Source: Sphingobacteriaceae bacterium
Lineage (GTDB): Bacteria > Bacteroidota > Bacteroidia > B-17B0 > Aurantibacillaceae
Assembly (NCBI GenBank): GCA_947480015.1
Contig: CANKBS010000009.1
Span: 3,255-67,254 of the forward strand
Direction of reading: 5' to 3'
Length of the DNA: 64,000 nucleotides
Position numbers and translations under genes: made by a program. Below, piece after piece: positions 45,019-57,435 of the stretch. Each line of letters starts with the position of its first letter. Positions within the stretch are counted from its first letter, which is position 1. A model generated the notes under the pieces. It was given only the letters and a program-made list of their open reading frames with translations. It was not told the DNA's origin and ran no database searches.

Positions 45019-47427
45019 ATGGATAAAAAGACCCTATCTGAACGCGATATATGCACAAAGTTTATCACACCCGCTGTTGAAAAAGCAGGATGGAATAAGC
45101 TGACTCAACTATTGGAAGAAGTTTCCTTTACAGATGGAAAAATCTACGTTCGCGGTAAGCTTACTGCTAGAGGAAATCAAAAGAGAGCAGATTATATTCT
45201 TTATTACAAGCCAAATATTCCAATCGCAATAATTGAGGCAAAAGACAATAAGCACTCAGTTAGAGCCGGAATTCAACAAGCATTAGATTACGCTCAAATA
45301 CTGGATATTCCCTGCGTGTTCAGTAGCAATGGCGATGGTTTCCTTTTTCATGACCGCACGGCAACTGACGGCAAGATAGAAACCGAATTAAGCATTGACA
45401 GCTTCCCTACACCCGAACAACTATGGGAGAAGTACAAAAAATACAAAGGCATTACAACTCCTTTAGCTGAAAAGATTGCATCTCAAGATTATTACTTTGA
45501 TGGCACTAATCGCAAACCACGCTACTACCAACAAATTGCCGTAAACAGAACTGTTGAAGCGATTGCCAATGGTCAGAATAGACTAATTCTAGTGATGGCA
45601 ACCGGCACTGGGAAGACTTATACTGCTTTCCAAATTATTCATCGTTTGTGGAAGAGCGGAGCCAAAAAACGAATCTTGTTTTTAGCTGATAGAAATGCAC
45701 TAATTGACCAAACCCGACGAGGCGACTTCAAACATTTTAAGGATAAAATGACTGTTGTAAAACACCGTCAGATTGATAAAAGCTATGAAATATATTTGGC
45801 TCTATATCAAGGATTGTCGGGCACAGATGAGGACTCTGATGTTTACAAACAATTTTCACCAGACTTTTTTGACCTAATTGTTATTGATGAGTGCCATCGT
45901 GGAAGTGCAAAGGAAGATAGCTCTTGGCGTGAAATTTTATCCTACTTCAAAAACGCCACACATATTGGCTTAACTGCCACCCCTAAAGAAACAAAGGAAA
46001 CAAGTAACACCGAATATTTTGGAGAGCCAGTTTACACCTACTCTCTTAAACAAGGCATCGATGATGGTTTCTTGGCTCCCTATCGCGTTGTAAGAATAGC
46101 ATTGAATGTGGATGCGGAAGGTTGGCGACCCAATCAGGGTAAAACAGATAAAGATGGACATGCTGTTAAAGACCGCATGTATAATCGTAAAGACTTTGAC
46201 CGTTCATTAGTGATTGAAGAGCGTACTGAAATGGTCGCTAAAAAACTAACTGAATTTTTAAAGGGCTATGACCGTTTTGCAAAGACAATTGTTTTTTGCG
46301 TAGATATTGACCATGCAGAGCGGATGCGAACAGCCTTAGCAAAGGAAAATCCTGATTTGGTTGCTGAAAATTACAAATACATCATGCAAATTACTGGCGA
46401 TAACGATGAAGGCAAACGAGAGCTTGATAATTTCATTAACCCAGAAGAAAAATATCCTGTCATTGCAACTACCTCTGAATTGATGACCACTGGTGTTGAT
46501 GCACAAACCTGTAAAGTAATTGTTTTAGATGCGAATATTAATTCAATGACCAAGTTCAAACAAATAATTGGTCGTGGTACACGCATAAACGAGGAGTTTG
46601 GTAAATTGTATTTTACGATTCTTGATTTCAGGAATGCCACAGATTTATTTGCAGACCCTGCTTTTGATGGAGACCCGTTAAGGGTAAAACCTGTATCGCA
46701 AGATGAAGATTTGTCGATGGTTGTTATTGAAGAAGAAGAAAACACTGTGACCGTTTTAGATGAAGTTACCGGTGAAGAAATAAAATTTGAAAAAGTAAAT
46801 ATACGTTACCCAGATGGGTCGCGCCTAGGCGGTAGTTGGATTGCACAAGACCCCAATAGAACAAGAGAAAAGATTTATGTAAACGGTGTCGATGTTTCAG
46901 TGCTTGTAAGTAGAGAAATGTATTTCGACCAGCATGGGAAACCTATTACCACCAGTCTGAAAGACCATACCAAAGAAATCATCAAGCGAAAATTTGTTTC
47001 CTTAGATGACTTCCTAAACAAATGGAATTCGACCGACCGCAAAGAAGCCATCATTGCCGAATTACAGGAACAGGGCGTAATGGTTGAAGCCCTGTATGAA
47101 GCAGTTGGTAAACAGGTTGATTTATTCGACCTCATTTGCCATGTGGCTTTCGACCAGCCACCATTATCTAGAAAAGATAGAGCCAATAATGTGAAGAAGC
47201 GGAATTACTTCACCAAATATGGTGAAACTGCGAAGAAAGTATTAGAAGCTTTATTGGACAAATATGCTGATGAAGGCATCACCAACATTGAAAGTATAGA
47301 GGTATTAAGAATCAATCCTTTTGATGAGTTTGGCTCACCAACAGAAATTATAAATGAATTTGGTAGCAAGGAAAAATACTTGGAAGCTGTTAGAGAATTA
47401 GAAAAAGAACTATATAAGAGAGCATAA
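45019..47427 (+). CDS. hsdR: Type I restriction enzyme R subunit (EcoAI/EcoEI-like)
   Basis: IIEAK nuclease motif, MATGTGKT, DECH, QIIGRGTR, EcoEI-type C-terminus. Confidence 0.95.
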   Translation: MDKKTLSERDICTKFITPAVEKAGWNKLTQLLEEVSFTDGKIYVRGKLTARGNQKRADYILYYKPNIPIAIIEAKDNKHSVRAGIQQALDYAQILDIPCVFSSNGDGFLFHDRTATDGKIETELSIDSFPTPEQLWEKYKKYKGITTPLAEKIASQDYYFDGTNRKPRYYQQIAVNRTVEAIANGQNRLILVMATGTGKTYTAFQIIHRLWKSGAKKRILFLADRNALIDQTRRGDFKHFKDKMTVVKHRQIDKSYEIYLALYQGLSGTDEDSDVYKQFSPDFFDLIVIDECHRGSAKEDSSWREILSYFKNATHIGLTATPKETKETSNTEYFGEPVYTYSLKQGIDDGFLAPYRVVRIALNVDAEGWRPNQGKTDKDGHAVKDRMYNRKDFDRSLVIEERTEMVAKKLTEFLKGYDRFAKTIVFCVDIDHAERMRTALAKENPDLVAENYKYIMQITGDNDEGKRELDNFINPEEKYPVIATTSELMTTGVDAQTCKVIVLDANINSMTKFKQIIGRGTRINEEFGKLYFTILDFRNATDLFADPAFDGDPLRVKPVSQDEDLSMVVIEEEENTVTVLDEVTGEEIKFEKVNIRYPDGSRLGGSWIAQDPNRTREKIYVNGVDVSVLVSREMYFDQHGKPITTSLKDHTKEIIKRKFVSLDDFLNKWNSTDRKEAIIAELQEQGVMVEALYEAVGKQVDLFDLICHVAFDQPPLSRKDRANNVKKRNYFTKYGETAKKVLEALLDKYADEGITNIESIEVLRINPFDEFGSPTEIINEFGSKEKYLEAVRELEKELYKRA

Positions 47428-47430
47428 TCG

Positions 47431-47913
47431 ATGTTATATATTCTAGAGGTTAATGACCAAACCAAAAGTGACGTAGTTGAATTAACATCCTTCAATTATT
47501 TGTTTGTTTCTGTAATGTCTGAAAAGGAAGCAGACGAGTTTGTTATTATTCAAGAAAAGGCAAAGTATGAAATAAAGGATAAAATTAGTGAACTCACTAA
47601 AAAGGGATTAATCTCCAACCTACCAACTAGAGACAAAACTTTATTATTTCTATTAGTGTATTTAGAAGGATGCTTGATTGCCTATGGTTATTCTATAGAA
47701 GACCCAGACGATAAAGATATTTGTTATATAAATACAATATTCGTTTCCAACGAACACAGAGGACTCGGATTAAGTAGTGTTATCCTAAAGAAATTAATAA
47801 ATGAGAACTTAACAAGATATCCTCACTTCAAAAAGATAAAAGGGATTACACAAAATGACAATAAAAAAGCCCAAAAAATATTAATTAATATGGGATTTAT
47901 ACATTCACAATAA
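47431..47913 (+). CDS. GNAT family acetyltransferase
   Basis: IFVSNEHRGLGLS acetyl-CoA motif A, NKKAQKILINMGF motif B. Confidence 0.82.
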   Translation: MLYILEVNDQTKSDVVELTSFNYLFVSVMSEKEADEFVIIQEKAKYEIKDKISELTKKGLISNLPTRDKTLLFLLVYLEGCLIAYGYSIEDPDDKDICYINTIFVSNEHRGLGLSSVILKKLINENLTRYPHFKKIKGITQNDNKKAQKILINMGFIHSQ

Positions 47914-47921
47914 ATAAATAG

Positions 47922-49358
47922 ATGAGCAACATAGGAGGCATAATAAAGAGTATTCAAAACATCATGTGGCAGGACACCGGTCTGAATGGCGATGCACAAC
48001 GTATCGAACAGTTAGGATGGATGCTTTTTTTGAAGATATTTTCTGACAAAGACAAAGAACTAGAACTACTTGATGAAAAATACAAATCACCTATTCCTGA
48101 TGAATACCACTGGGTAAAAGAAAAAGGCAATTGGGCTGGTGATGATGAAGGGATGACAGGTGATGAGCTTTTAGAGTTTGTTGACCGGAAACTATTTCCG
48201 GCTCTACGAAATTTAGACTTAAGTACTGGTAATCAAAGAGCCGTTATTGTTCGAGAGGTTTTTGAAGGAAATAACAATTACATGAAAAGTGGCATCAATA
48301 TCCGTAAGGTGTTGAACAAGCTTAACGAAATTGATTTTAATATTGCTAAAGACCGTCATGCCTTTGGTGAGCTCTACGAAACCATTTTAAAAGAATTACA
48401 AAGTGCGGGTAAAAGCGGTGAATTCTATACACCTAGAGCCATCACACAATTTATCACAGATATTATTGACCCAAAATTGGGTGAGAGAATTTTAGACCCT
48501 GCTTGCGGAACAGGTGGTTATTTGACATGTGCCATTGAACATTTAAAAAAACAGGCGAAGAATGTAAAAGACCGAAAGAGCATTGAACAAAATATTGCTG
48601 GCTGGGAATACAAGCCCCTGCCCTATTTGTTGGCAACAACCAATTTGATTTTACACGACATTGAAATACCCAACATTAAATTTGGTGATGCCTTAGACCA
48701 GCCTTTGAGCAACTTTACTGAAAAACACCGTGTAAATGTAATACTGGCTAATCCTCCTTTTGGTGGTATAGTAGCCAATGGCAACGAAAGCAATTTTCCG
48801 CAAACATTTCGCACCAAAGAAAGTGCCGACCTATTTTTAATTTTGATGATTCATCTTTTAAAACAAGATGGCAGAGCCGGGATTGTTTTACCGGATGGCT
48901 CCTTAACCGGTGATGGTGTAAAACAACGTGTGAGGCAAAAGCTTTTAGAGGAATGTAATCTTCATACTATTATTCGTTTACCTAATTCTGTATTTCAGCC
49001 TTATGCATCAGTAGCAACCAACTTATTATTTTTTGATAAGGGTAAACCTACAAAGGACATTTGGTATTATGAACACCGAATGCCGGAAGGCTACAAAGCA
49101 TACAACAAAACCAAACCAATTCAAGCAAAGGAATTTGAACCAATTAAGAAGTGGTGGAATAAGAGAAAAGAAGGTGATTTTGCTTGGAAAGTAAACATCA
49201 AAACGATAATTGAAAGAGGGTACGACTTAGATATTAAAAACCCAACAAAACCTGAAGAAGAAAAAGAATACAATAGTGCTGAATTAATAAAAATGCTTGA
49301 CGATTCATTTGACAAGAGCCACAGTTTATTGAACCAACTTAAACTAGCTTTAAAATGA
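47922..49358 (+). CDS. hsdM: Type I RM methyltransferase subunit
   Basis: GEFYTPR, DPACGTGG, NPPF. Confidence 0.96.
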   Translation: MSNIGGIIKSIQNIMWQDTGLNGDAQRIEQLGWMLFLKIFSDKDKELELLDEKYKSPIPDEYHWVKEKGNWAGDDEGMTGDELLEFVDRKLFPALRNLDLSTGNQRAVIVREVFEGNNNYMKSGINIRKVLNKLNEIDFNIAKDRHAFGELYETILKELQSAGKSGEFYTPRAITQFITDIIDPKLGERILDPACGTGGYLTCAIEHLKKQAKNVKDRKSIEQNIAGWEYKPLPYLLATTNLILHDIEIPNIKFGDALDQPLSNFTEKHRVNVILANPPFGGIVANGNESNFPQTFRTKESADLFLILMIHLLKQDGRAGIVLPDGSLTGDGVKQRVRQKLLEECNLHTIIRLPNSVFQPYASVATNLLFFDKGKPTKDIWYYEHRMPEGYKAYNKTKPIQAKEFEPIKKWWNKRKEGDFAWKVNIKTIIERGYDLDIKNPTKPEEEKEYNSAELIKMLDDSFDKSHSLLNQLKLALK

Positions 49359-50683
49359 GTTGGAGAAAGGTAAAATTAGGTGAATTTTTAAGAGTTCGGG
49401 ATAATCGTTATAAACCCAACGATAAAGCCATAAAAAACCTACAACGAATTGATAAAATTGATTTTTCAGGGAAAATATTTATTTCAGACAAACCTTCAAA
49501 CACTGATATGATATTGGTTAAAAAGGGAGATTTAGTGATATCTGGAATTAACGTTGAAAAGGGAGCAATGGCAGTATATACTGGTGAAGAAGATATAACT
49601 GCCACAATCCATTATTCTTCATACAGCTTCGATGAGACCAAAACTGATATTGAATTTTTGAAATCATTTTTAAAGAGTATTGAATTTAAAAACGCATTAA
49701 AAGAACAAGTACCGGGAGGTATTAAAACTGAAATAAAACCGAAACATCTATTACCCCTTATTGTTGAAATTCCCACAGATATTAAAGAGCAAAAAGCGGT
49801 TGTAAAATTATTGCAAGGGCGAAATTCAAAAGTAGATGAAATATCTTTAGAACTCACCCACCAACTCTCTTTAGTAAAAAAACTCCGCCAGCAATTATTG
49901 CAGGATGCGGTGCAAGGAAAATTAGTACCACAAAACAAAAAAGATGAACCAGCTGGTGAACTGCTAAAGAAAATTAAAGCCGAAAAAGTTAAACTGTTTG
50001 CAGAAAAGAAACTGAAAAAAGAAAAAGAATTGCCACCAATAAAACCAGATGAAATTCCTTTTGAAATTCCTGAGAATTGGATTTGGTGTAGGGGTGAAAT
50101 AATTGCGAATTATATTGACCCCCAGCCAAGCCACAGGACTCCTGCTGAAAGTGCAGATGGTGTGCCATACATAGCAATGAGTGATATAAAAAAGGATGGC
50201 TCCATTGATTTTAATTTTGCAAGGAAGGTCTCTAAAGAAATATTAGTTGAGCATCAAAAAAGATACAAATTGGAAAATGGTGATTTTGTGTTTGGGAAAA
50301 TAGGTACAATTGGTAAGCCAGTAAAACTTCCTTCACCTTTTAACTATACATTATCTGCAAACGTGATTCTTATTCAACCGATTAGAAAATTAATTAATCA
50401 TGATTACTTATTCTATTTTCTTTCTAGTCCAACTGCCGAGAAAAATCTAATTGAAAATAAAAGCACAACATCCTATCCGGTTTTCGGCATGGGAAAGGCA
50501 AGAAACATGCCTATACCGCTTCCACCACTTGCTGAACAAATCAGAGTCGTTCAAAAAATAGCTGAACTAATGCAGTATTGCAATGATTTGGAAGTCAGTA
50601 TCAAACAAAGTGAATCACAAAATGAAAAATTATTACAACAGGTTTTAAGAGAGGCATTGAGGAAAGAGCCGGTTGAGGCTTAA
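49355..50683 (+). CDS. hsdS: Type I RM specificity subunit
   Basis: Two TRDs, central LLQDAVQGKLVPQ...EIPFEIPENW, PLPPLAEQ; ATGA overlap with hsdM. Confidence 0.93.
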   Translation: MSWRKVKLGEFLRVRDNRYKPNDKAIKNLQRIDKIDFSGKIFISDKPSNTDMILVKKGDLVISGINVEKGAMAVYTGEEDITATIHYSSYSFDETKTDIEFLKSFLKSIEFKNALKEQVPGGIKTEIKPKHLLPLIVEIPTDIKEQKAVVKLLQGRNSKVDEISLELTHQLSLVKKLRQQLLQDAVQGKLVPQNKKDEPAGELLKKIKAEKVKLFAEKKLKKEKELPPIKPDEIPFEIPENWIWCRGEIIANYIDPQPSHRTPAESADGVPYIAMSDIKKDGSIDFNFARKVSKEILVEHQKRYKLENGDFVFGKIGTIGKPVKLPSPFNYTLSANVILIQPIRKLINHDYLFYFLSSPTAEKNLIENKSTTSYPVFGMGKARNMPIPLPPLAEQIRVVQKIAELMQYCNDLEVSIKQSESQNEKLLQQVLREALRKEPVEA

Positions 50684-50910
50684 TAATAATCATTTAAAAA
50701 ATAGAGGGCAAACTTAAATATCTATGTCTGTAATAATGATACAAAATCCAAAACCAGCAAAAAGTCAAAATAAAGTACCCAATTCCCAACTTAATATAAA
50801 CATAGTTGGGTTTCTTAAACAGTTGTTTATTAACCTTTTATGACCTGTTTTATCTGAAGGGAATCTTCCTTATATTTAACTAAATTTACGAACAACCTTT
50901 TATCAATTTA

Positions 50911-53439
50911 ATGACGAAAATACCCTTCAAAGTATCTGCAAGAACCGCCAAACTTATTGGACAAGAGAACTTCTCTAATCCAGAGGGTGCAACTATTGAA
51001 TTGGTAAAAAACTGTTATGATGCTGATGCGAAAAATTGTTTAGTTGTTTACGACATATTATTTGATAGTATTCCTGAAACACTTTCTACCAAAGAATATA
51101 AAAACTACTCATCAGAAAACGAAGTTGTAAGGCTAGGTTACAAACTGAAAGAAGGGAAATATTTTCTTACACAAAGTTTAAATGAAAAAAGAACAAATGA
51201 ATTGCTTTCGTTTTTCTATTCGTTTAACTCGATTTACATCATAGACAATGGTGATGGAATGACTCAAAGTGTGATTCAAAACCAATGGATGGAAATTGGA
51301 ACCGGAAACAAAGAGACTAACTACATCTCAGATGATGGCAGGATAAAGACAGGAGCGAAAGGAATTGGAAGATTTGCACTTGACCGTTTGGGATTTTTTG
51401 CAGAAATGTGGACTGTTCCCAAAGATAAAAAATCTGGACATGGTTATTATTGGAGCATGGACTGGACACAGTTTGAAGCTCCGAACAAATCTGTTTCAGA
51501 TATTGAAGCAGACTTTGAGGCAAAAGATATAAACCTAAAAACATTCATCCAAGAACACTTCAAAAGTCATTCAGGTTTAGTTGATTTTATCAAATCAAAA
51601 TCATTTAGTAGTGGCACAATAATTAAAATTTCAAAACTTAAAGACAGTTGGAATGAAACCAATTTACAAAGTGTATTTAAGAGTTTAGAGGCGTTAATTC
51701 CACCAAAGGAATTAGAAATTCCATTCCATGTAAATTTCTATCACCTGCAAAAGCCAAAAGTATTTGGTGAAGTGGAAACAGCTTACTTCAATGATTATGA
51801 CTACAAAGTTTTAGCAAAATTCAATTCAAAAGATTTAACTGTTGATTTGACTTTAACTAGGAACGAGTTGGATTTAAAAAAGGTAAAAAAGGAATTTGTT
51901 CACATTTTTAAGAACGCAAAACAACCATACGACTTAAAGACCTTAGAGAAAAAGGAATTTACCATTTCTAAAACAGCTAACGAAATTTTAAAGTGGGAGA
52001 ATAATAATTATAATGAAACAGCACTTAAGAAATTAGGTGACTTTGCTTTTTCATTTTACTTTTTAAAAAATATAACATCACTAAAAGAAGATTATCCGCA
52101 TCAGGCAATTAATTCTAAAGAACGTAAAGAAATTATTGAAAAGTTTGGCGGAATAAAAATTTACAGAGACTCATTTCGTGTAAGACCTTATGGAGATACT
52201 GGTAACGATTGGTTGAAGCTAGGAGAAAGGGCTTCTGTTAGTCCTGCTGGCGCAGGGCAAAGAATTGGAGATTGGAGAGTAAGACCAAATCAAATCGCAG
52301 GGCTTATTACAATTTCAAGAATTGAAAATCCAAATCTGCTCGACAAGTCAGACCGAGGTGGACTTCAAGAGAATGAAGCTTTTGATACACTTCAAAAATT
52401 ATTGAAAGCACTTATTTATGAATTTGAGTTGGATAGAACTAAAATTCTAAATCCATTCTACCTTGATGCTAAAGCAAAAGAGGAGAAAAAAAGAGAAGCT
52501 GAAATAAGGAAAGAGGCAGAAAAATTAGCTGACAAAATCGTTCTTGAAAGACAAAAAGTTGAACACAAAATATACGGCTCTAAACAAGACCTTTTTAAAG
52601 GTATAAAAGATGAAGAAGAAAAAGAAGCATATAAAAATGTCATAAAGAAAAGTTTAGAGAAGTTTGAAAAAAGGGATGATGAATATGCAGAAATTGCACA
52701 GATAAGAACTTTAGCAAGTTTAGGTTTAATAGTTTCATCGTTTGCACACGAACTAAAAGAAGTTAGAAACAACTTTGACGATATACATGAACTTGAAAAA
52801 ATCTTTAACAAGATTGTTTCTGATGACAAGAAGAAAAATGTTGACTTCAAAGATGGGCTGAACATTATTGAATTGCTAAAATCAGCAAATCAAAAAATTT
52901 CTCATTGGGTTGATTATTCTCTGACAGCTATCAAAAAAGACAAAAGAAAAAGGACAACTATAAAGTTTGACAGATATTTTTCCGGACTGAGTAAGAACTG
53001 GAAAAAAGTTTTAGAGAATAGCAATGTGGAGCTTGACTTGAAAAACAACATCAAGAACCCTTATGTATTTAGGGGTTTTGAGATGGATTTGAATACTGTT
53101 TTCAATAATCTAATTTCAAATTCCATTGAAGCATTTCACAACTTACGAGTTATTCGTGATAGAAAAATTGTAATTGCATTTTCATTAGTTAAGAACAACA
53201 TTCAAATAATATACTCCGACAACGGAACAGGAATTCCAAGCGTTTTCAAAAAAGAAAGGGATGAAATCTTTTTACCGTTCACTACTTCCAAGAAAGACAA
53301 AGAAGGAAATGAAATAGGAACAGGTTTAGGAATGTATCTTGTAAAAAATGTGATGAATGACAACAATGGTTCAGTAGAAATTATGGATGCACCTGTTGGC
53401 TTAAAATTAAAAATTGATTTTCCAATCAGAAAAAAATAG
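50911..53439 (+). CDS. Fusion of MORC/HSP90-like GHKL ATPase and C-terminal histidine kinase
   Basis: N-term IELVKNCYDADA, IDNGDGM, GAKGIGRFA; C-term H-box SFAHEL, N-box FNNLISNS, DNGTGI, F-box FLPF, GTGLGM; no TM segments. Confidence 0.88.
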   Translation: MTKIPFKVSARTAKLIGQENFSNPEGATIELVKNCYDADAKNCLVVYDILFDSIPETLSTKEYKNYSSENEVVRLGYKLKEGKYFLTQSLNEKRTNELLSFFYSFNSIYIIDNGDGMTQSVIQNQWMEIGTGNKETNYISDDGRIKTGAKGIGRFALDRLGFFAEMWTVPKDKKSGHGYYWSMDWTQFEAPNKSVSDIEADFEAKDINLKTFIQEHFKSHSGLVDFIKSKSFSSGTIIKISKLKDSWNETNLQSVFKSLEALIPPKELEIPFHVNFYHLQKPKVFGEVETAYFNDYDYKVLAKFNSKDLTVDLTLTRNELDLKKVKKEFVHIFKNAKQPYDLKTLEKKEFTISKTANEILKWENNNYNETALKKLGDFAFSFYFLKNITSLKEDYPHQAINSKERKEIIEKFGGIKIYRDSFRVRPYGDTGNDWLKLGERASVSPAGAGQRIGDWRVRPNQIAGLITISRIENPNLLDKSDRGGLQENEAFDTLQKLLKALIYEFELDRTKILNPFYLDAKAKEEKKREAEIRKEAEKLADKIVLERQKVEHKIYGSKQDLFKGIKDEEEKEAYKNVIKKSLEKFEKRDDEYAEIAQIRTLASLGLIVSSFAHELKEVRNNFDDIHELEKIFNKIVSDDKKKNVDFKDGLNIIELLKSANQKISHWVDYSLTAIKKDKRKRTTIKFDRYFSGLSKNWKKVLENSNVELDLKNNIKNPYVFRGFEMDLNTVFNNLISNSIEAFHNLRVIRDRKIVIAFSLVKNNIQIIYSDNGTGIPSVFKKERDEIFLPFTTSKKDKEGNEIGTGLGMYLVKNVMNDNNGSVEIMDAPVGLKLKIDFPIRKK

Positions 53440-53444
53440 TCAAG

Positions 53445-54080
53445 ATGAAATACAAAATCGGATACATAGACGAAGACCCAACTCAATTCAATAAGTATGA
53501 AAGAGAATTGAGGGAATATTTTGATGTTGTCGGTTATCAAATATCAAAAGGGTTACCCCTTGAAGATATGATAAATCAAGTTTATGAATCAGATATAGAC
53601 TTATTGCTTGTTGATTATCTCCTAGTTGAAAAAGGTGTTTTGGTTTACAACGGAGATAAAGTTGCAAGAGCATTTGAAGAAATTAAACCAAGGTTTCCGA
53701 TAATAATTTTCACCAATGAAGAGAATCAAGCATTCCCACAAGTTGACAATCCTTTCAACATTTGTGATAAAGCAGAAGTAAAAGACAACATCAACAAGTT
53801 TGTTTCAAAGCTCACTAAGTTAATTGAGCAATACAAAGGTTTTGTTTCAAAAAGAAAAGACCTAATTAATAAACTCCTTGACAAAGGTGAAAAAGAAGGA
53901 TTAAGCTCTGAAGAAAAGCATGAATTACTTCAGGCACAATCAGAATTAAATAATCTTGACAAGCGTTCAACCGAAGTTCCTCTTCAGTTAATGACTGATA
54001 AAAAACTCGAAGACCTATCAAAGACAACTAAAGAGGCGGAAGCGTTTTTGGAATCACTAATTAAAAAGAATAAGAAGTGA
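53445..54080 (+). CDS. Receiver-domain protein with helical C-terminal extension
   Basis: YIDED, LLVDY (phospho-Asp), IFTN, DK; no DNA-binding HTH recognised. Confidence 0.8.
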   Translation: MKYKIGYIDEDPTQFNKYERELREYFDVVGYQISKGLPLEDMINQVYESDIDLLLVDYLLVEKGVLVYNGDKVARAFEEIKPRFPIIIFTNEENQAFPQVDNPFNICDKAEVKDNINKFVSKLTKLIEQYKGFVSKRKDLINKLLDKGEKEGLSSEEKHELLQAQSELNNLDKRSTEVPLQLMTDKKLEDLSKTTKEAEAFLESLIKKNKK

Positions 54081-54712
54081 TACCACTTAGAGATATAACA
54101 CCTTCACGGACAGCTCCAGTATTAAACGAAACTGACGGGAATTGGGGAAAGCATAAGCCACAATTAAAAAATGATTTTAATAGTCATTGTGGTTATTGTC
54201 ATTCATATGACGGATATAAACACACATATTTTGAAGTTGACCACTTCGTTCCGAAAAGTGTAATCATTAAAAACGGGTGGGACATTCCCTCAGCCCGTTA
54301 CAACAACTTGGTTTATTCCTGTAAGTTTTGTAACAATAAAAAACTTAGTAAGTGGACAACCAACAGCCATATAGTTTATAATGATGGCACAACTGGTTTT
54401 GTTGACCCATGTGATGCGTCTTATGATACACTTTTTTACAGAACAACTGACGGAGCAATAAGACCTGATGCAAATTCTGACTTGGCAAAATGGATGTATA
54501 AAGTGGCATTCAAGTTTGACGAAAGAGAAAGAGCTATAATTGTTCTTTGGAACATGAATAGATTAAGACAGATTATTGATGGGCTTATAGTGGAACTTAA
54601 TACTTATGGAATCGGCTCAACAGATTACAACACGATAAAATTAAAGCTCGGTGAATACGCGCTGAAATATTATATCTTTCACAAGGAATTAATTGAATTC
54701 TATGAGCAATAA
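54077..54712 (+). CDS. HNH endonuclease
   Basis: CGYC...EVDHFVPKS...NNLVYSCKFCNNKK. Confidence 0.9.
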   Translation: MIPLRDITPSRTAPVLNETDGNWGKHKPQLKNDFNSHCGYCHSYDGYKHTYFEVDHFVPKSVIIKNGWDIPSARYNNLVYSCKFCNNKKLSKWTTNSHIVYNDGTTGFVDPCDASYDTLFYRTTDGAIRPDANSDLAKWMYKVAFKFDERERAIIVLWNMNRLRQIIDGLIVELNTYGIGSTDYNTIKLKLGEYALKYYIFHKELIEFYEQ

Positions 54713-56300
54713 AAAGAATATAGGCTCATTTTACACTCCAAAAATTATTGCAGATTTTTTGGTGGACTATCTGTCAAAAAAATTGACTGGTGATAATTTG
54801 ACAATATTGGAGCCAAGTGCAGGAGATGGAATTTTTATTCAGTCAATTTACAATCACCAAACCTTATCAAAGCAAATAAAAAAAGTAATTGCGGTTGAGA
54901 GAGAAAAAAATGAACTTGAAAAAGTAAAAGCAATTACAAAAAGTAAATCACTTGAAACTATTCATTCAGATTTTTTAAAGTTTCAAAATAACAACAAACA
55001 AAAATTTAATTTGGTGGTTGGCAATCCACCCTACATCAAGAAAAGTTTGTTAGAAGCAGAGCAAATTTCTCATTGTGAAAACATTCATAAACTCTTCCCG
55101 GCTCTTTCAGAAAATAAAATCAAAAATATCTGGACAGCTTTTTTAGTTCGGAGTATAAATTTTGTAAGCGACGATGGAATATTAGCTTTTGTTCTTCCTT
55201 CCGAATTACTGCAAGTAAAGTTTGCATCTGAACTTCGGGCTTTAATTCTTAAAGAATTTGAACGAGTTGAAATTTTTACTTTCAATGAATTGCTTTTTAA
55301 AGATTGCAAAGGACAAGACACCTTACTCTTAATTGGTGAACGTAAATCAAAAAACAAAGGTGTTTATTACTGCAATATTGGAAAATTGAATGACCTTGGA
55401 GAAAAAAGGTTTACACTTGCTCAGAATGTAAACATTAGAGAATCTAAATGGACGCATCATCACTTGGCTACTGATGAGATTGAACTTTTAGAGAAAATCA
55501 AAAAGCACCTTCATATTGCAAATTATTACTGTACATCAAAGGCAGGTATAGTAACTGCAGCCAATAATTATTTTATAGTGGATACTAAAACCGTTCAGGA
55601 ATATTCATTGAAGAAATATGTAAAGGAAATTATTCAGAAAGGGTCTTTTGTAAATGGTAGTGTTATTCTAACTCAACTTGAGTTTGACAATTTAGTTAAG
55701 CAATCAAAGCCGACATTTCTGATTGCTCTTAACAAGGCAACAAAGATTAAAACCAATGAAAGAATACATCAATATCTAGAAAAAGGTTTGGCTTTAAAAA
55801 TAAATGAGAGATATAAAACCTTATTGCGCAACAAGTGGTTTGAAGTTCCTAATGTTGGAAACCCACCTGAAGCATTTTTCTTTAAGCGCTGTAATGAATA
55901 TCCAAAACTAATTAAAAACAATGCAAGTGTTTTAACAACAGATAGTGCCTATACAATTGAAATGAAAGAAGACTATGACGTGGAAAACTTGATTTTCTCT
56001 TTCTACAACTCATTGACACTTTCTTTTGCTGAACTTAACGGTAGATATTACGGTGGTGGTGTTTTAGAATTGACTCCAAATGAATTCAAAAACTTACCTG
56101 TGCCTTACATGAATGTTGGAGTAAAAGAATTCAATTCGTTTGTAAAAGCCTTTAAGGGAAAGACTTCAATCAAAGATATTTGCCTAAAAAATGACACTAA
56201 AATTCTTAAATCAATTGACAGTAAAATTGACAGCGATAGTATAAACAAAATCTTTAGTATTCGTGAAAAGTTATATCTGCGTAGAATCAAAACGAATTAG
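54693..56300 (+). CDS. N6-adenine DNA methyltransferase (gamma-class, Eco57I/TaqI-like)
   Basis: GSFYTP, LEPSAGDGIF (motif I), GNPPY (motif IV), C-terminal TRD-like region; likely start ATG 54702. Confidence 0.9.
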   Translation: MNSMSNKKNIGSFYTPKIIADFLVDYLSKKLTGDNLTILEPSAGDGIFIQSIYNHQTLSKQIKKVIAVEREKNELEKVKAITKSKSLETIHSDFLKFQNNNKQKFNLVVGNPPYIKKSLLEAEQISHCENIHKLFPALSENKIKNIWTAFLVRSINFVSDDGILAFVLPSELLQVKFASELRALILKEFERVEIFTFNELLFKDCKGQDTLLLIGERKSKNKGVYYCNIGKLNDLGEKRFTLAQNVNIRESKWTHHHLATDEIELLEKIKKHLHIANYYCTSKAGIVTAANNYFIVDTKTVQEYSLKKYVKEIIQKGSFVNGSVILTQLEFDNLVKQSKPTFLIALNKATKIKTNERIHQYLEKGLALKINERYKTLLRNKWFEVPNVGNPPEAFFFKRCNEYPKLIKNNASVLTTDSAYTIEMKEDYDVENLIFSFYNSLTLSFAELNGRYYGGGVLELTPNEFKNLPVPYMNVGVKEFNSFVKAFKGKTSIKDICLKNDTKILKSIDSKIDSDSINKIFSIREKLYLRRIKTN

Positions 56301-56423: not shown

Positions 56424-56741
56424 TTGAATTCAACCATCACCTTAGATAGCGAACTTTGGATTTCAGTAAAATCTGAAGATGCTAGTTATTCAAGGAGACC
56501 ATTATTTTTAATTGCCAATCGCTTCCGGGTTCACTTGCTTAAGCTATCTGAAAACTATTCCGGTCATGTGGTAAAAGCCTACTTGATAGTTGGTTTGGAG
56601 CCACACGAAAAACTAATTGTTTACTATTTGTTTCGCAAAAACAATTCAATCCAAAAAAGAAAAGTGCTACTGAACAAAGGATTTGACCGTGAGTTGGGGC
56701 GTTTGCTCGGTTTGGCTCTAGATAAAAAAATCGGTCACTAA
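56424..56741 (+). CDS. Hypothetical protein
   Basis: 105-aa ORF with TTG start, no recognised motif. Confidence 0.45.
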   Translation: MNSTITLDSELWISVKSEDASYSRRPLFLIANRFRVHLLKLSENYSGHVVKAYLIVGLEPHEKLIVYYLFRKNNSIQKRKVLLNKGFDRELGRLLGLALDKKIGH

Positions 56742-56784
56742 AACACTTCCACTGAATTTTCAAATCAATTAAAATTAAATCGAA

Positions 56785-57435
56785 ATGAGAAAAGGAATCA
56801 GCCATCAATTTAAAAAAGAATACATAGTAAAAAATGATTCAGGAGTAGATATTTTCTACTTTACCATTTACCAGTATTCTGAGGGCTTCAGAGAGCATTA
56901 CACAAACTTGAGTATCAATTGGGACAAGTACCCAATTCTGTTTTATTATTTGGATATACTCCTAAAGGTTGAGGAACACCGGATTGACAGCCTGTCAACT
57001 ATCCTTTTCAAGGAAATTAAGCGTTGCCCTGAATTTGCATCAGATTACTTCAAAGACGAAGTTCTGACCCGTGATGGTAGATATTCACCGGCACTGGCTA
57101 GAGAGGTTGGTCGCCTAAAACGCAAAAAGTTTGAAGCCGAACGTTATAAATTCCAATTAAACACCCCCTACTCGGCTGAACACAACCCTGAAGGCTTCAA
57201 AATAGCCCAGAGCCATTTAGAGCCAAATGGAGCTGGGCAGGATTATGTTAAGGCTCTACTGCCAAAAGATGCCTTTGAGAGGCTCCTAATTAATGAAAAG
57301 CTGCAAAATGCCTATATCGAGGTGTATTCTCCAGATGCTGATTTTATCCTTGGTAAAAGTCCGTCTGATGATGCTGTTTTTATGTATCAGGGTTCGCGAT
57401 TGTTACTCATGATTATTTTGAAAAGTCATTTGTAA
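56785..57435 (+). CDS. Hypothetical protein
   Basis: 216-aa ORF with ATG start, last gene of the element. Confidence 0.6.
   Translation: MRKGISHQFKKEYIVKNDSGVDIFYFTIYQYSEGFREHYTNLSINWDKYPILFYYLDILLKVEEHRIDSLSTILFKEIKRCPEFASDYFKDEVLTRDGRYSPALAREVGRLKRKKFEAERYKFQLNTPYSAEHNPEGFKIAQSHLEPNGAGQDYVKALLPKDAFERLLINEKLQNAYIEVYSPDADFILGKSPSDDAVFMYQGSRLLLMIILKSHL

Follow-up and report, generated by a model that had tools for sequence, protein, structure and literature searches.

Ambrosia, an anti-phage system of Pseudomonas aeruginosa (van den Berg et al., bioRxiv 10.1101/2025.09.30.679545), is composed of five parts: AbrR (a HipB-like XRE protein), AbrA (an N6 methyltransferase), AbrB (a kinase/HSP90-like ATPase), AbrC (a receiver) and AbrD (an HNH protein). 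Here, we describe a cassette of four co-oriented genes (A, B, C and D; positions 50911-56300) that lies within a stretch of 64,000 nucleotides from a Sphingobacteriaceae bacterium (contig CANKBS010000009.1), a stretch referred to as the window in the following. Judged by sequence comparison, this cassette is a distant, rearranged four-gene relative of Ambrosia and belongs to a known kind of system. We nevertheless set it apart from the five-gene Ambrosia system because it is devoid of AbrR, and because its methyltransferase (MTase) is not orthologous to that of Ambrosia and is found at another position.

Ambrosia has been reported from Gammaproteobacteria only (537 instances), and all of its components, including AbrR, are needed for defence. 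Protection is lost with each of the amino acid substitutions AbrB N40A, AbrC D60A, AbrD H60A, AbrA T72A and AbrR E45A. When placed at abrA or abrD, the mNeonGreen reporter is barely expressed without phage and is induced by infection; AbrC was reported to carry a wHTH (winged helix-turn-helix), and a transcriptional mechanism was proposed for the system. A phage propagated on an AbrA-expressing host is still fully sensitive to Ambrosia, and an AbrA point mutant has lost defence and exhibits no toxicity (bioRxiv 10.1101/2025.09.30.679545).

That dual-GHKL kinases and receivers are associated with restriction-modification (RM) genes was known before Ambrosia from a computational study. Bellieny-Rabelo et al. 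(2021, PMC8011034) described soluble proteins composed of HATPase_c_3, DHp (HEF_HK) and HATPase_c that pair with output-less receivers (Response_reg_2), and found these pairs over-represented beside type II RM genes. Iyer, Abhiman & Aravind (2008, PMC2292703) described prokaryotic MORC/paraMORC ATPases of RM systems, with paraMORC1 possessing HNH neighbours and an uncharacterised C-terminal extension. A HATPase + REC system is also listed by DefensePredictor, as an unvalidated prediction only.

The cassette and its relationship to Ambrosia

The four genes and the leader that precedes them are arranged as follows (aa, amino acids; ORF, open reading frame).

Leader upstream of gene A: 50684-50910, + strand, intergenic, without an XRE/AbrR-like ORF
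Gene A: 50911-53439, + strand, 842 aa, AbrB-like (ORF list)
Gene B: 53445-54080, + strand, 211 aa, AbrC-like (ORF list)
Gene C: 54077-54712, + strand, 211 aa, AbrD-like and PtuB-like HNH nuclease (ORF list)
Gene D: 54693-56300, + strand, 535 aa from the TTG at 54693 or 532 aa from the ATG at 54702

The four genes constitute a single unit that is coupled in translation. When read from the DNA, the junction between A and B is a gap of 5 bp (TAG tcaag ATG), the stop codon of B and the start codon of C share the letters GTGA, and the overlap between C and D amounts to 11 bp from the ATG at 54702 or to 20 bp from the TTG at 54693. A preliminary description of the locus, made from its letters alone, had given four co-oriented, coupled genes with these positions, gaps and overlaps, and both the ORF list and the junction DNA agree with it. 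An XRE- or AbrR-type ORF was sought in the leader and none was found, as the ORFs there are spurious and at most 39 aa in length; the ORF list likewise holds no helix-turn-helix (HTH) ORF elsewhere in the cassette. A scan for sigma-70 promoters returned 22 sites compared with 23.2 in shuffled sequences; this type of scan is, in addition, ill-suited to a low-GC genome that is probably from the Bacteroidota.

For the comparison with Ambrosia, we used the sequences printed in Table S1 of the preprint, in which AbrB is represented by 399 available residues. Protein A aligns with residues 1-399 of AbrB at 27% identity (BLASTP; E = 9e-42), with N34 placed opposite N40. B and AbrC are of the same size and collinear (24% identity; E = 2e-4), with D57 aligned to D60, while C matches AbrD at 32% identity (E = 1e-11) and has its H56 opposite H60. 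N34, D57 and H56, the counterparts of the residues that had been mutated in AbrB, AbrC and AbrD, are each invariant among 70-75 homologues. Between D and AbrA, only the N-terminal region with the FxTP motif and motif I aligns (E = 7e-4); the FxTP motif that houses the AbrA T72A site reads FYTP in D, with T15 at the corresponding position.

Both systems contain a kinase/ATPase with two GHKL domains, a receiver of about 210 aa that stands alone, an HNH protein of about 210 aa that is PtuB-like, and a gamma-class N6-adenine MTase. They also share the Pfam profile HATPase_c, HATPase_c_3, HATPase_c_5 and weak Response_reg, the last being the only match to this family that AbrC itself produces, and the PtuB/retron-HNH match profile of C is the same as that listed for AbrD. 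The MTase gene, in contrast, is located 3' of the other genes in the window and upstream of the kinase gene in Ambrosia, A is 95 aa longer than its counterpart, and the wHTH reported for AbrC is not seen in B. Whereas Ambrosia was reported from a single bacterial class, the clade of the window's cassette spans Bacteroidota, Bacillota, Alpha-, Beta- and Gammaproteobacteria, Nitrospinota, a bacterium of the candidate phyla radiation (CPR) and an archaeon. The author of the preliminary description was unable to name a characterised system with this architecture; such a system exists in Ambrosia, which has been tested in P. aeruginosa and whose AbrB, AbrC and AbrD are homologous to A, B and C.

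The family of protein A comprises more than 4000 proteins and is encoded at more than 564 loci in species-representative genomes. Gene order was counted in 80 fetched loci of this family, and the presence of the MTase in 78. The check on neighbourhood conservation that the preliminary description had proposed supports the cassette: the order A-B-C, or a C-like HNH gene downstream of A, is found in 76 of the 80 loci, while three of the remaining four lie on contigs that end before the gene set is complete and the fourth is ordered differently. In 70 loci, A and C are separated by an ORF of 195-240 aa. A gene for a gamma-class N6-adenine MTase adjoins the others in 71 of 78 loci, of which 39 have it downstream of C (as in the window), 31 have it upstream of A and one has it in both positions; the seven loci without it are mostly truncated contigs. 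The median distances between the genes are 1 nt (A-B), 0 nt (B-C), -4 nt (C-MTase) and 10 nt (MTase-A), and C and the MTase gene overlap in most of those loci that carry the latter downstream. The hosts belong to the Bacteroidota, the Bacillota, the Alpha-, Beta- and Gammaproteobacteria, the Nitrospinota and the Thermodesulfobacteriota, and they include metagenome-assembled genomes (MAGs) of a member of the Paceibacteria (CPR) and of an archaeon. Such co-occurrence in several phyla, with median gaps close to 0 nt, places the linkage of the genes far beyond chance.

In a quick maximum-likelihood tree (IQ-TREE) of the N-terminal 490 residues of A from 75 sampled homologues, the position of the MTase gene follows the clades, with 5 changes compared with 24.7 in shuffles. 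Both the subfamily and the position of the MTase vary among clades, while A, B and C are constant. A small XRE-type ORF (HTH_3/HTH_26; 66-84 aa in one count and 66-115 aa in another), likely the counterpart of AbrR, heads approximately 16 of the 78 loci (about 20%). It is absent from the nearest relative of the window's cassette (L001), as it is from the window, and occurs in these loci:

XRE ORF about 200 bp upstream of A: L003-L009, L013, L014, L017, L025, L026, L035
XRE ORF upstream of MTase-A: L058, L060, L065

The four proteins and their kin in other defence systems

Protein A is the largest of the four proteins, and sequence and model both support its assignment as a soluble MORC-like ATPase that is fused to a complete histidine kinase. 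Its predicted domains are arranged in the following order.

Residues ~1-488: GHKL+S5 module
Residues ~489-587: coiled coil of ~100 residues
DHp domain with His613
Residues ~700-840: CA domain of the GHKL type

Pfam assigns the N-terminus to HATPase_c_3 (3e-12) and residues 724-837 to HATPase_c (7e-13) and HATPase_c_5. In an alignment of 75 homologues with 28-79% identity, the Bergerat residues of the first GHKL domain (E30, N34, D37, D112, G114, G116, G148, K150, G151, G153), a central block (R419, D420, R425-G428, D433, W434) and the kinase residues H613, N733, N737, G803, G805 and G807 are all invariant. The H-box reads SFAH613ELK, and the N, G1, F and G2 boxes are kept in the relatives. A profile of the A family matched the DHp+CA core of HK853, ThkA and ZraS in the Protein Data Bank (PDB) at E values of about 1e-17, and kinases were the only PDB matches of A by sequence.

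The AlphaFold2 model of A (mean predicted local distance difference test, pLDDT, 83.4; predicted template modelling score, pTM, 0.76) exhibits a GHKL domain, a mixed alpha/beta domain that extends to about residue 488, a coiled coil, and then the DHp and CA domains. When this model was compared with known structures by Foldseek, the N-terminal part (about 540 columns) matched the ATPase module (GHKL+S5) of human MORC2 (E ~1e-10; target-normalised TM 0.44-0.45), and the C-terminal third matched the DHp and CA domains of HK853, ZraS and CpxA. Since Pfam, profile and conservation data agree with the AlphaFold2 and Foldseek results, we assign a MORC-like ATPase and an intact kinase to A. The two GHKL folds and the solubility that the preliminary description had attributed to this protein are in accord with Pfam, the model, Foldseek and the hydropathy analysis, in which no transmembrane segment was detected in A, B, C or D (maximum KD19 1.38).

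The first GHKL domain of A contains an insertion of about 57 aa (residues ~49-105; positions 51055-51225), which is modelled with confidence as two helices, a hairpin and a helix. This insertion is confined to close relatives of the window's protein (P0010, P0014, P0035, P0042 and P0050) and is missing from the Flavobacteriaceae-type members of the family and from AbrB.

Protein B is predicted, from its sequence and its structural model, to be a receiver with the phospho-acceptor Asp57 and a helical tail, and to be devoid of a DNA-binding domain. Its match to the Pfam family Response_reg is weak (1e-3) and lies under the Pfam cut-off, but 41 of 71 B homologues match this family, with a best E value of 1.3e-7. 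D57 and G70 are invariant among these homologues, and D9, P85 and T90 are conserved in at least 90% of them. According to the AlphaFold2 model (pLDDT 86), residues 1-115 adopt the (beta-alpha)5 fold of receivers and are followed by three helices (116-150, 155-171 and 185-210). Foldseek aligned this model with the receiver and helical-bundle part of PorX and with many CheY-like receivers at ~3-4 Å; DNA-binding regulators such as RcsB fit only at a root-mean-square deviation of ~14 Å, which implies an alignment through the receiver only. None of the 71 B homologues matches a DNA-binding Pfam family. The preliminary description had noted that the receiver lacks a recognisable DNA-binding output, a point upheld by both the Pfam searches and the succession of receiver and helices in the model.

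A profile search with the B family among 1.84 billion representatives yielded 307 clusters at E <= 1e-30 (clustering at 50% identity). The best 150 representatives all stand alone, and all but two of them are ~200-230 aa in length; the two are a truncated entry of 170 aa and an entry of 289 aa, whose tail is a low-complexity read-through, and natural REC-HNH or REC-DNA-binding fusions are not found among these 150. Labels suggested by NCBIfam for the two signalling proteins ('LIC_12097 kinase' and 'LM5578_1851 response regulator') had scores far under their cut-offs and were discarded.

Protein C matches the Pfam HNH family at 1e-6, and its best matches in defence libraries are PADLOC PtuB (5e-12) and, below their cut-offs, the NCBIfam models of retron- and Septu-associated HNH proteins. 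Its core has the form CxxC...DH56...N77...CxxCN86..K89 and is followed by a helical C-terminal half; C38, H56, N77, C82, N86 and K89 are invariant among 70 homologues. No PDB entry was matched in a sequence search with C. Protein D is classed by its motifs and profile matches as a gamma-class N6-adenine DNA methyltransferase of the M.Eco57I/TaqI type that possesses a C-terminal target-recognition domain of its own. It contains the motifs FYTP and EPSAGDG and an intact NPPY, matches M_Eco57I_C (9e-33), Eco57I (1.5e-15) and N6_Mtase (1e-10) in Pfam, and aligns over its full length with the PADLOC model MTase_II PDLC03267, which is a REBASE-derived model of type II MTases (2e-132). Among its relatives with PDB structures are M.BseCI and M.TaqI. 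In all, the catalytic and phospho-transfer residues of the cassette are intact and conserved, and the motifs that the preliminary description had listed for kinase, receiver, nuclease and methyltransferase are all present. The PADLOC search that it had recommended was informative for the two last-named proteins (PtuB for C, MTase_II for D), but provided no system-level match for A or B.

The HEF_HK/Response_reg_2 pairs mentioned above resemble the window's A and B in the combination of HATPase_c_3, DHp and HATPase_c within a soluble protein, in the adjacent output-less receiver and in their RM-type neighbourhood. These pairs are, however, mainly found with C5 methylases, Vsr and HNH_2, whereas the family of the window is found with N6-adenine methylases and a PtuB-like HNH protein. 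Membership in these two Pfam families was rejected: HEF_HK (PF19191) was not matched by A at E <= 0.1, nor by any of 43 A homologues, and Response_reg_2 (PF19192) was matched neither by B nor by any of 71 B homologues; for both models, the genome was empty at E <= 10. With the MORC/paraMORC proteins, A shares an N-terminal GHKL+S5 module with intact ATP-binding motifs, for which MORC2 is the best structural match, and methylase and nuclease neighbours; it differs from them in the fusion of this module to a complete histidine kinase, in the pairing with a receiver and in the absence of an SF2 helicase partner. The description of paraMORC1 is only a lead for A.

Two further known types of defence system have individual features in common with the cassette. 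Septu and retron-associated HNH proteins provide the best library matches of C, and an HNH nuclease restrained by a partner ATPase is a theme shared with them. The ATPase of the window is, in contrast, of the GHKL type and not a PtuA-type ABC ATPase, and a relay and a methyltransferase are present in addition. Membership in Septu was rejected, since A has no PtuA match in PADLOC and C reaches a score of 21.3 with the NCBIfam PtuB model, compared with a cut-off of 150. Detocs (kinase DtcA, buffer receiver DtcB and receiver-effector DtcC) likewise uses a cytoplasmic His-Asp phosphorelay for anti-phage signalling, but the window encodes a single receiver, an unfused effector, a MORC-like ATPase sensor in place of TPR repeats, and a methyltransferase. 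No Detocs model of PADLOC was matched and the HNH protein is separate from the only receiver, so that this assignment was discarded as well.

Proposed control of the nuclease by the phosphorelay

We suggest that the cassette is best explained as a rearranged Ambrosia-type anti-phage system in which a phosphorelay licenses an HNH nuclease and the MTase is a required component, and we consider this explanation reasonably probable. The MORC-like GHKL+S5 module of A would serve as a cytoplasmic sensor and would probably work as a clamp, driven by ATP, on DNA or on a nucleoprotein state specific to infection. The module would dimerise in an ATP-dependent manner, presumably on DNA, as MORC proteins do, and this dimerisation would be relayed via the coiled coil to the DHp and CA domains; the kinase would then autophosphorylate His613, and the phosphoryl group would move from this residue to Asp57 of B. 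Phospho-B, with its helical tail as the sole output, would license the PtuB-like HNH protein C through protein-protein contacts, and the licensed nuclease would cut the invading DNA. D is envisioned as an obligatory partner that would act either in sequence recognition or licensing, or in the marking of DNA.

For the distant homologue Ambrosia, it has been shown that the system is active in defence and that the Asn of the N-terminal GHKL domain, the Asp of the receiver, the His of the HNH protein and the MTase are needed. We infer the nature of the signal, an output at the level of proteins rather than of transcription, and the role of methylation. Gating of the nuclease at the protein level is favoured by us, as an unproven view, over the transcriptional model of the preprint; for the clade of the window, this preference derives from the lack of a DNA-binding domain in B and 71 homologues, from the absence of an XRE gene here, and from the co-translation of sensor and effector from one operon.

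Several observations weigh against our interpretation. The defence role is carried over from a distant homologue at 24-32% identity, and in the tree a very long branch places AbrB outside the 75 homologues sampled. A gene that Ambrosia requires, XRE/AbrR, is missing from the window, and D, as a member of an M.Eco57I_C-bearing subfamily, is not an ortholog of AbrA. Searches with PADLOC 2.0 and NCBIfam provided no system-level name for A or B. Furthermore, the induction of the abrA/abrD reporter upon infection is compatible with transcriptional control and not with gating at the protein level.

According to the model proposed in the preprint, A would sense infection and phosphorylate B, and phospho-B would then act on transcription, switching on genes for the MTase and the HNH protein that are otherwise silent and could be toxic to the cell itself. 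The behaviour of mNeonGreen at abrA/abrD in infected cells, the wHTH reported for AbrC and the XRE regulator in about one-fifth of the related loci are all in keeping with such a switch. It is difficult to reconcile, however, with a B protein that has three long helices behind its receiver instead of a wHTH, whose DNA-binding Foldseek matches are of the distant kind described above, and none of whose 71 homologues matches a DNA-binding Pfam family, AbrC itself being recognised only weakly, as Response_reg. Neither the cassette nor its leader contains an XRE gene, and the translational coupling of A to D within one operon means that sensor and effector are co-transcribed, a poor fit with an induction of the effector only. 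We therefore regard a transcriptional switch as rather improbable for the cassette of the window. A further proposal would be that the four genes are coincidental neighbours, with an ordinary type II RM pair (C, D) located beside an unrelated housekeeping two-component system (A, B). Apart from the generic names given to the homologues by RefSeq (kinase, hypothetical, HNH, N-6 methylase), little would recommend this view: the genes are found together in five phyla or more, their ORFs overlapping or abutting, no complete locus has A and B but lacks C, the cassette is missing from 18 congeneric genomes, and every component of Ambrosia is required. We consider such a coincidence extremely improbable, and the view of the preliminary description that the genes constitute a defence-type four-gene module, rather than an RM system next to an unrelated two-component system, is strengthened by their co-occurrence across phyla.

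A more serious competitor, and the model of the preliminary description, is a phospho-gated classical RM system, in which D would methylate a specific site in the host DNA as a mark of self and C would cut unmethylated sites, with the relay from A to B doing nothing but switching C on. That phages grown on an AbrA host remained fully sensitive to Ambrosia, and that the AbrA mutant lost defence without the toxicity to be expected from an unprotected restriction enzyme, are both at odds with this scheme, as are the affiliation of C with PtuB/retron-type HNH proteins, outside the known families of type II restriction endonucleases, and the shifts in MTase subfamily and position between clades with constant A, B and C. 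It would, on the other hand, account for the adjacency of an MTase in 71 of 78 loci, for the overlap of C and D in most loci with a downstream MTase, for the location of the cassette within an RM-rich island, and for the properties of D, a gamma MTase that is full-length, resembles type II enzymes and carries a target-recognition domain itself (2e-132; relatives M.BseCI and M.TaqI). We judge this alternative to be unlikely, albeit less so than the transcriptional switch. The marking of self by the methylase, as suggested in the preliminary description, is doubtful on the same grounds; the Ambrosia data argue against it, but their result is not simply transferable because D belongs to another MTase subfamily. 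Gating of the HNH nuclease by a phosphorelay, the other part of that description's inference, is compatible with the present data.

Returning to the relay-licensed nuclease, we tentatively put forward a more specific version, to which we attach appreciably less confidence than to the general explanation. Here, the His-Asp relay would be the coupling device of a restriction machine instead of a transcriptional switch. The MORC clamp would read the state of the DNA and translate it into phosphorylation of the receiver, the tail of the receiver would directly license a PtuB-type HNH nuclease, and the MTase would be a required recognition or licensing subunit rather than a self-marker. If this is true, such a principle of 'phospho-gated restriction' would be common to thousands of cassettes in bacteria and some archaea.

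The cassette as such is unsurprising after 2025; the question of mechanism is sharpened by how broad its clade is and by a receiver that has no output domain. The Ambrosia core, consisting of a MORC-like kinase, a receiver, a PtuB-like HNH protein and an adenine MTase, is part of a much larger, multi-phylum clade, which is usually without an XRE regulator, in which MTases of different type and position have been swapped, and whose receiver has no DNA-binding domain. A receiver of this kind makes it a testable question how a two-component relay controls a nuclease in immunity, and the family provides a bacterial setting for MORC-type ATPases as sensors of signals.

Genomic surroundings and mobility

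The cassette is accessory cargo on a defence island beside a type I RM system, as indicated by its RM neighbours, by a shift in G+C content and by its absence from 18 congeneric genomes, in none of which (0/18 genomes of the same genus) a full-length A homologue was found. The type I RM operon is located directly upstream (45019-50683) and encodes HsdR, a GNAT protein, HsdM and HsdS. The ORF for the GNAT acetyltransferase (160 aa; 47431-47913) is inserted between hsdR and hsdM, beginning 3 bp after the former and ending 8 bp before the latter. Downstream of the cassette, two ORFs (105 aa and 216 aa; 56424-57435) are without a Pfam match, and the next gene is that of aconitase. The G+C content is 0.31-0.34 over the cassette and 0.38-0.42 from about 56.5 kb onwards; this rise suggests that the right edge of the island lies near 56424-57435. 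A comparison of the integrase region with the right end of the island for tRNA genes and direct repeats revealed no tRNA gene, a single 13-mer repeat and no att-like repeat.

A search of a phage collection detected no A homologue. The four-gene order of the window is shared by a plasmid of Bacteroides finegoldii and by conjugative Bacillus plasmids, and the homologues on these plasmids carry the RefSeq labels 'sensor histidine kinase', 'hypothetical protein', 'HNH endonuclease' and 'N-6 DNA methylase'. On plasmid 3 of B. finegoldii (113 kb; L085, 2137-11070), the cassette is flanked by a site-specific integrase and by a toxin-antitoxin pair of the SocA/MqsR type. Complete kinase-receiver-HNH-MTase cassettes are present in the MAG of an archaeon from horse faeces (L024) and in the Paceibacteria (CPR) MAG (L036), which indicates a very wide horizontal spread if the binning of these genomes is right. 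On a Lachnospiraceae contig (L063, 1-5550), genes for the receiver, the HNH protein and the MTase are followed by that of the kinase at the end of the contig, an order that represents either a permuted arrangement or two adjacent cassettes.

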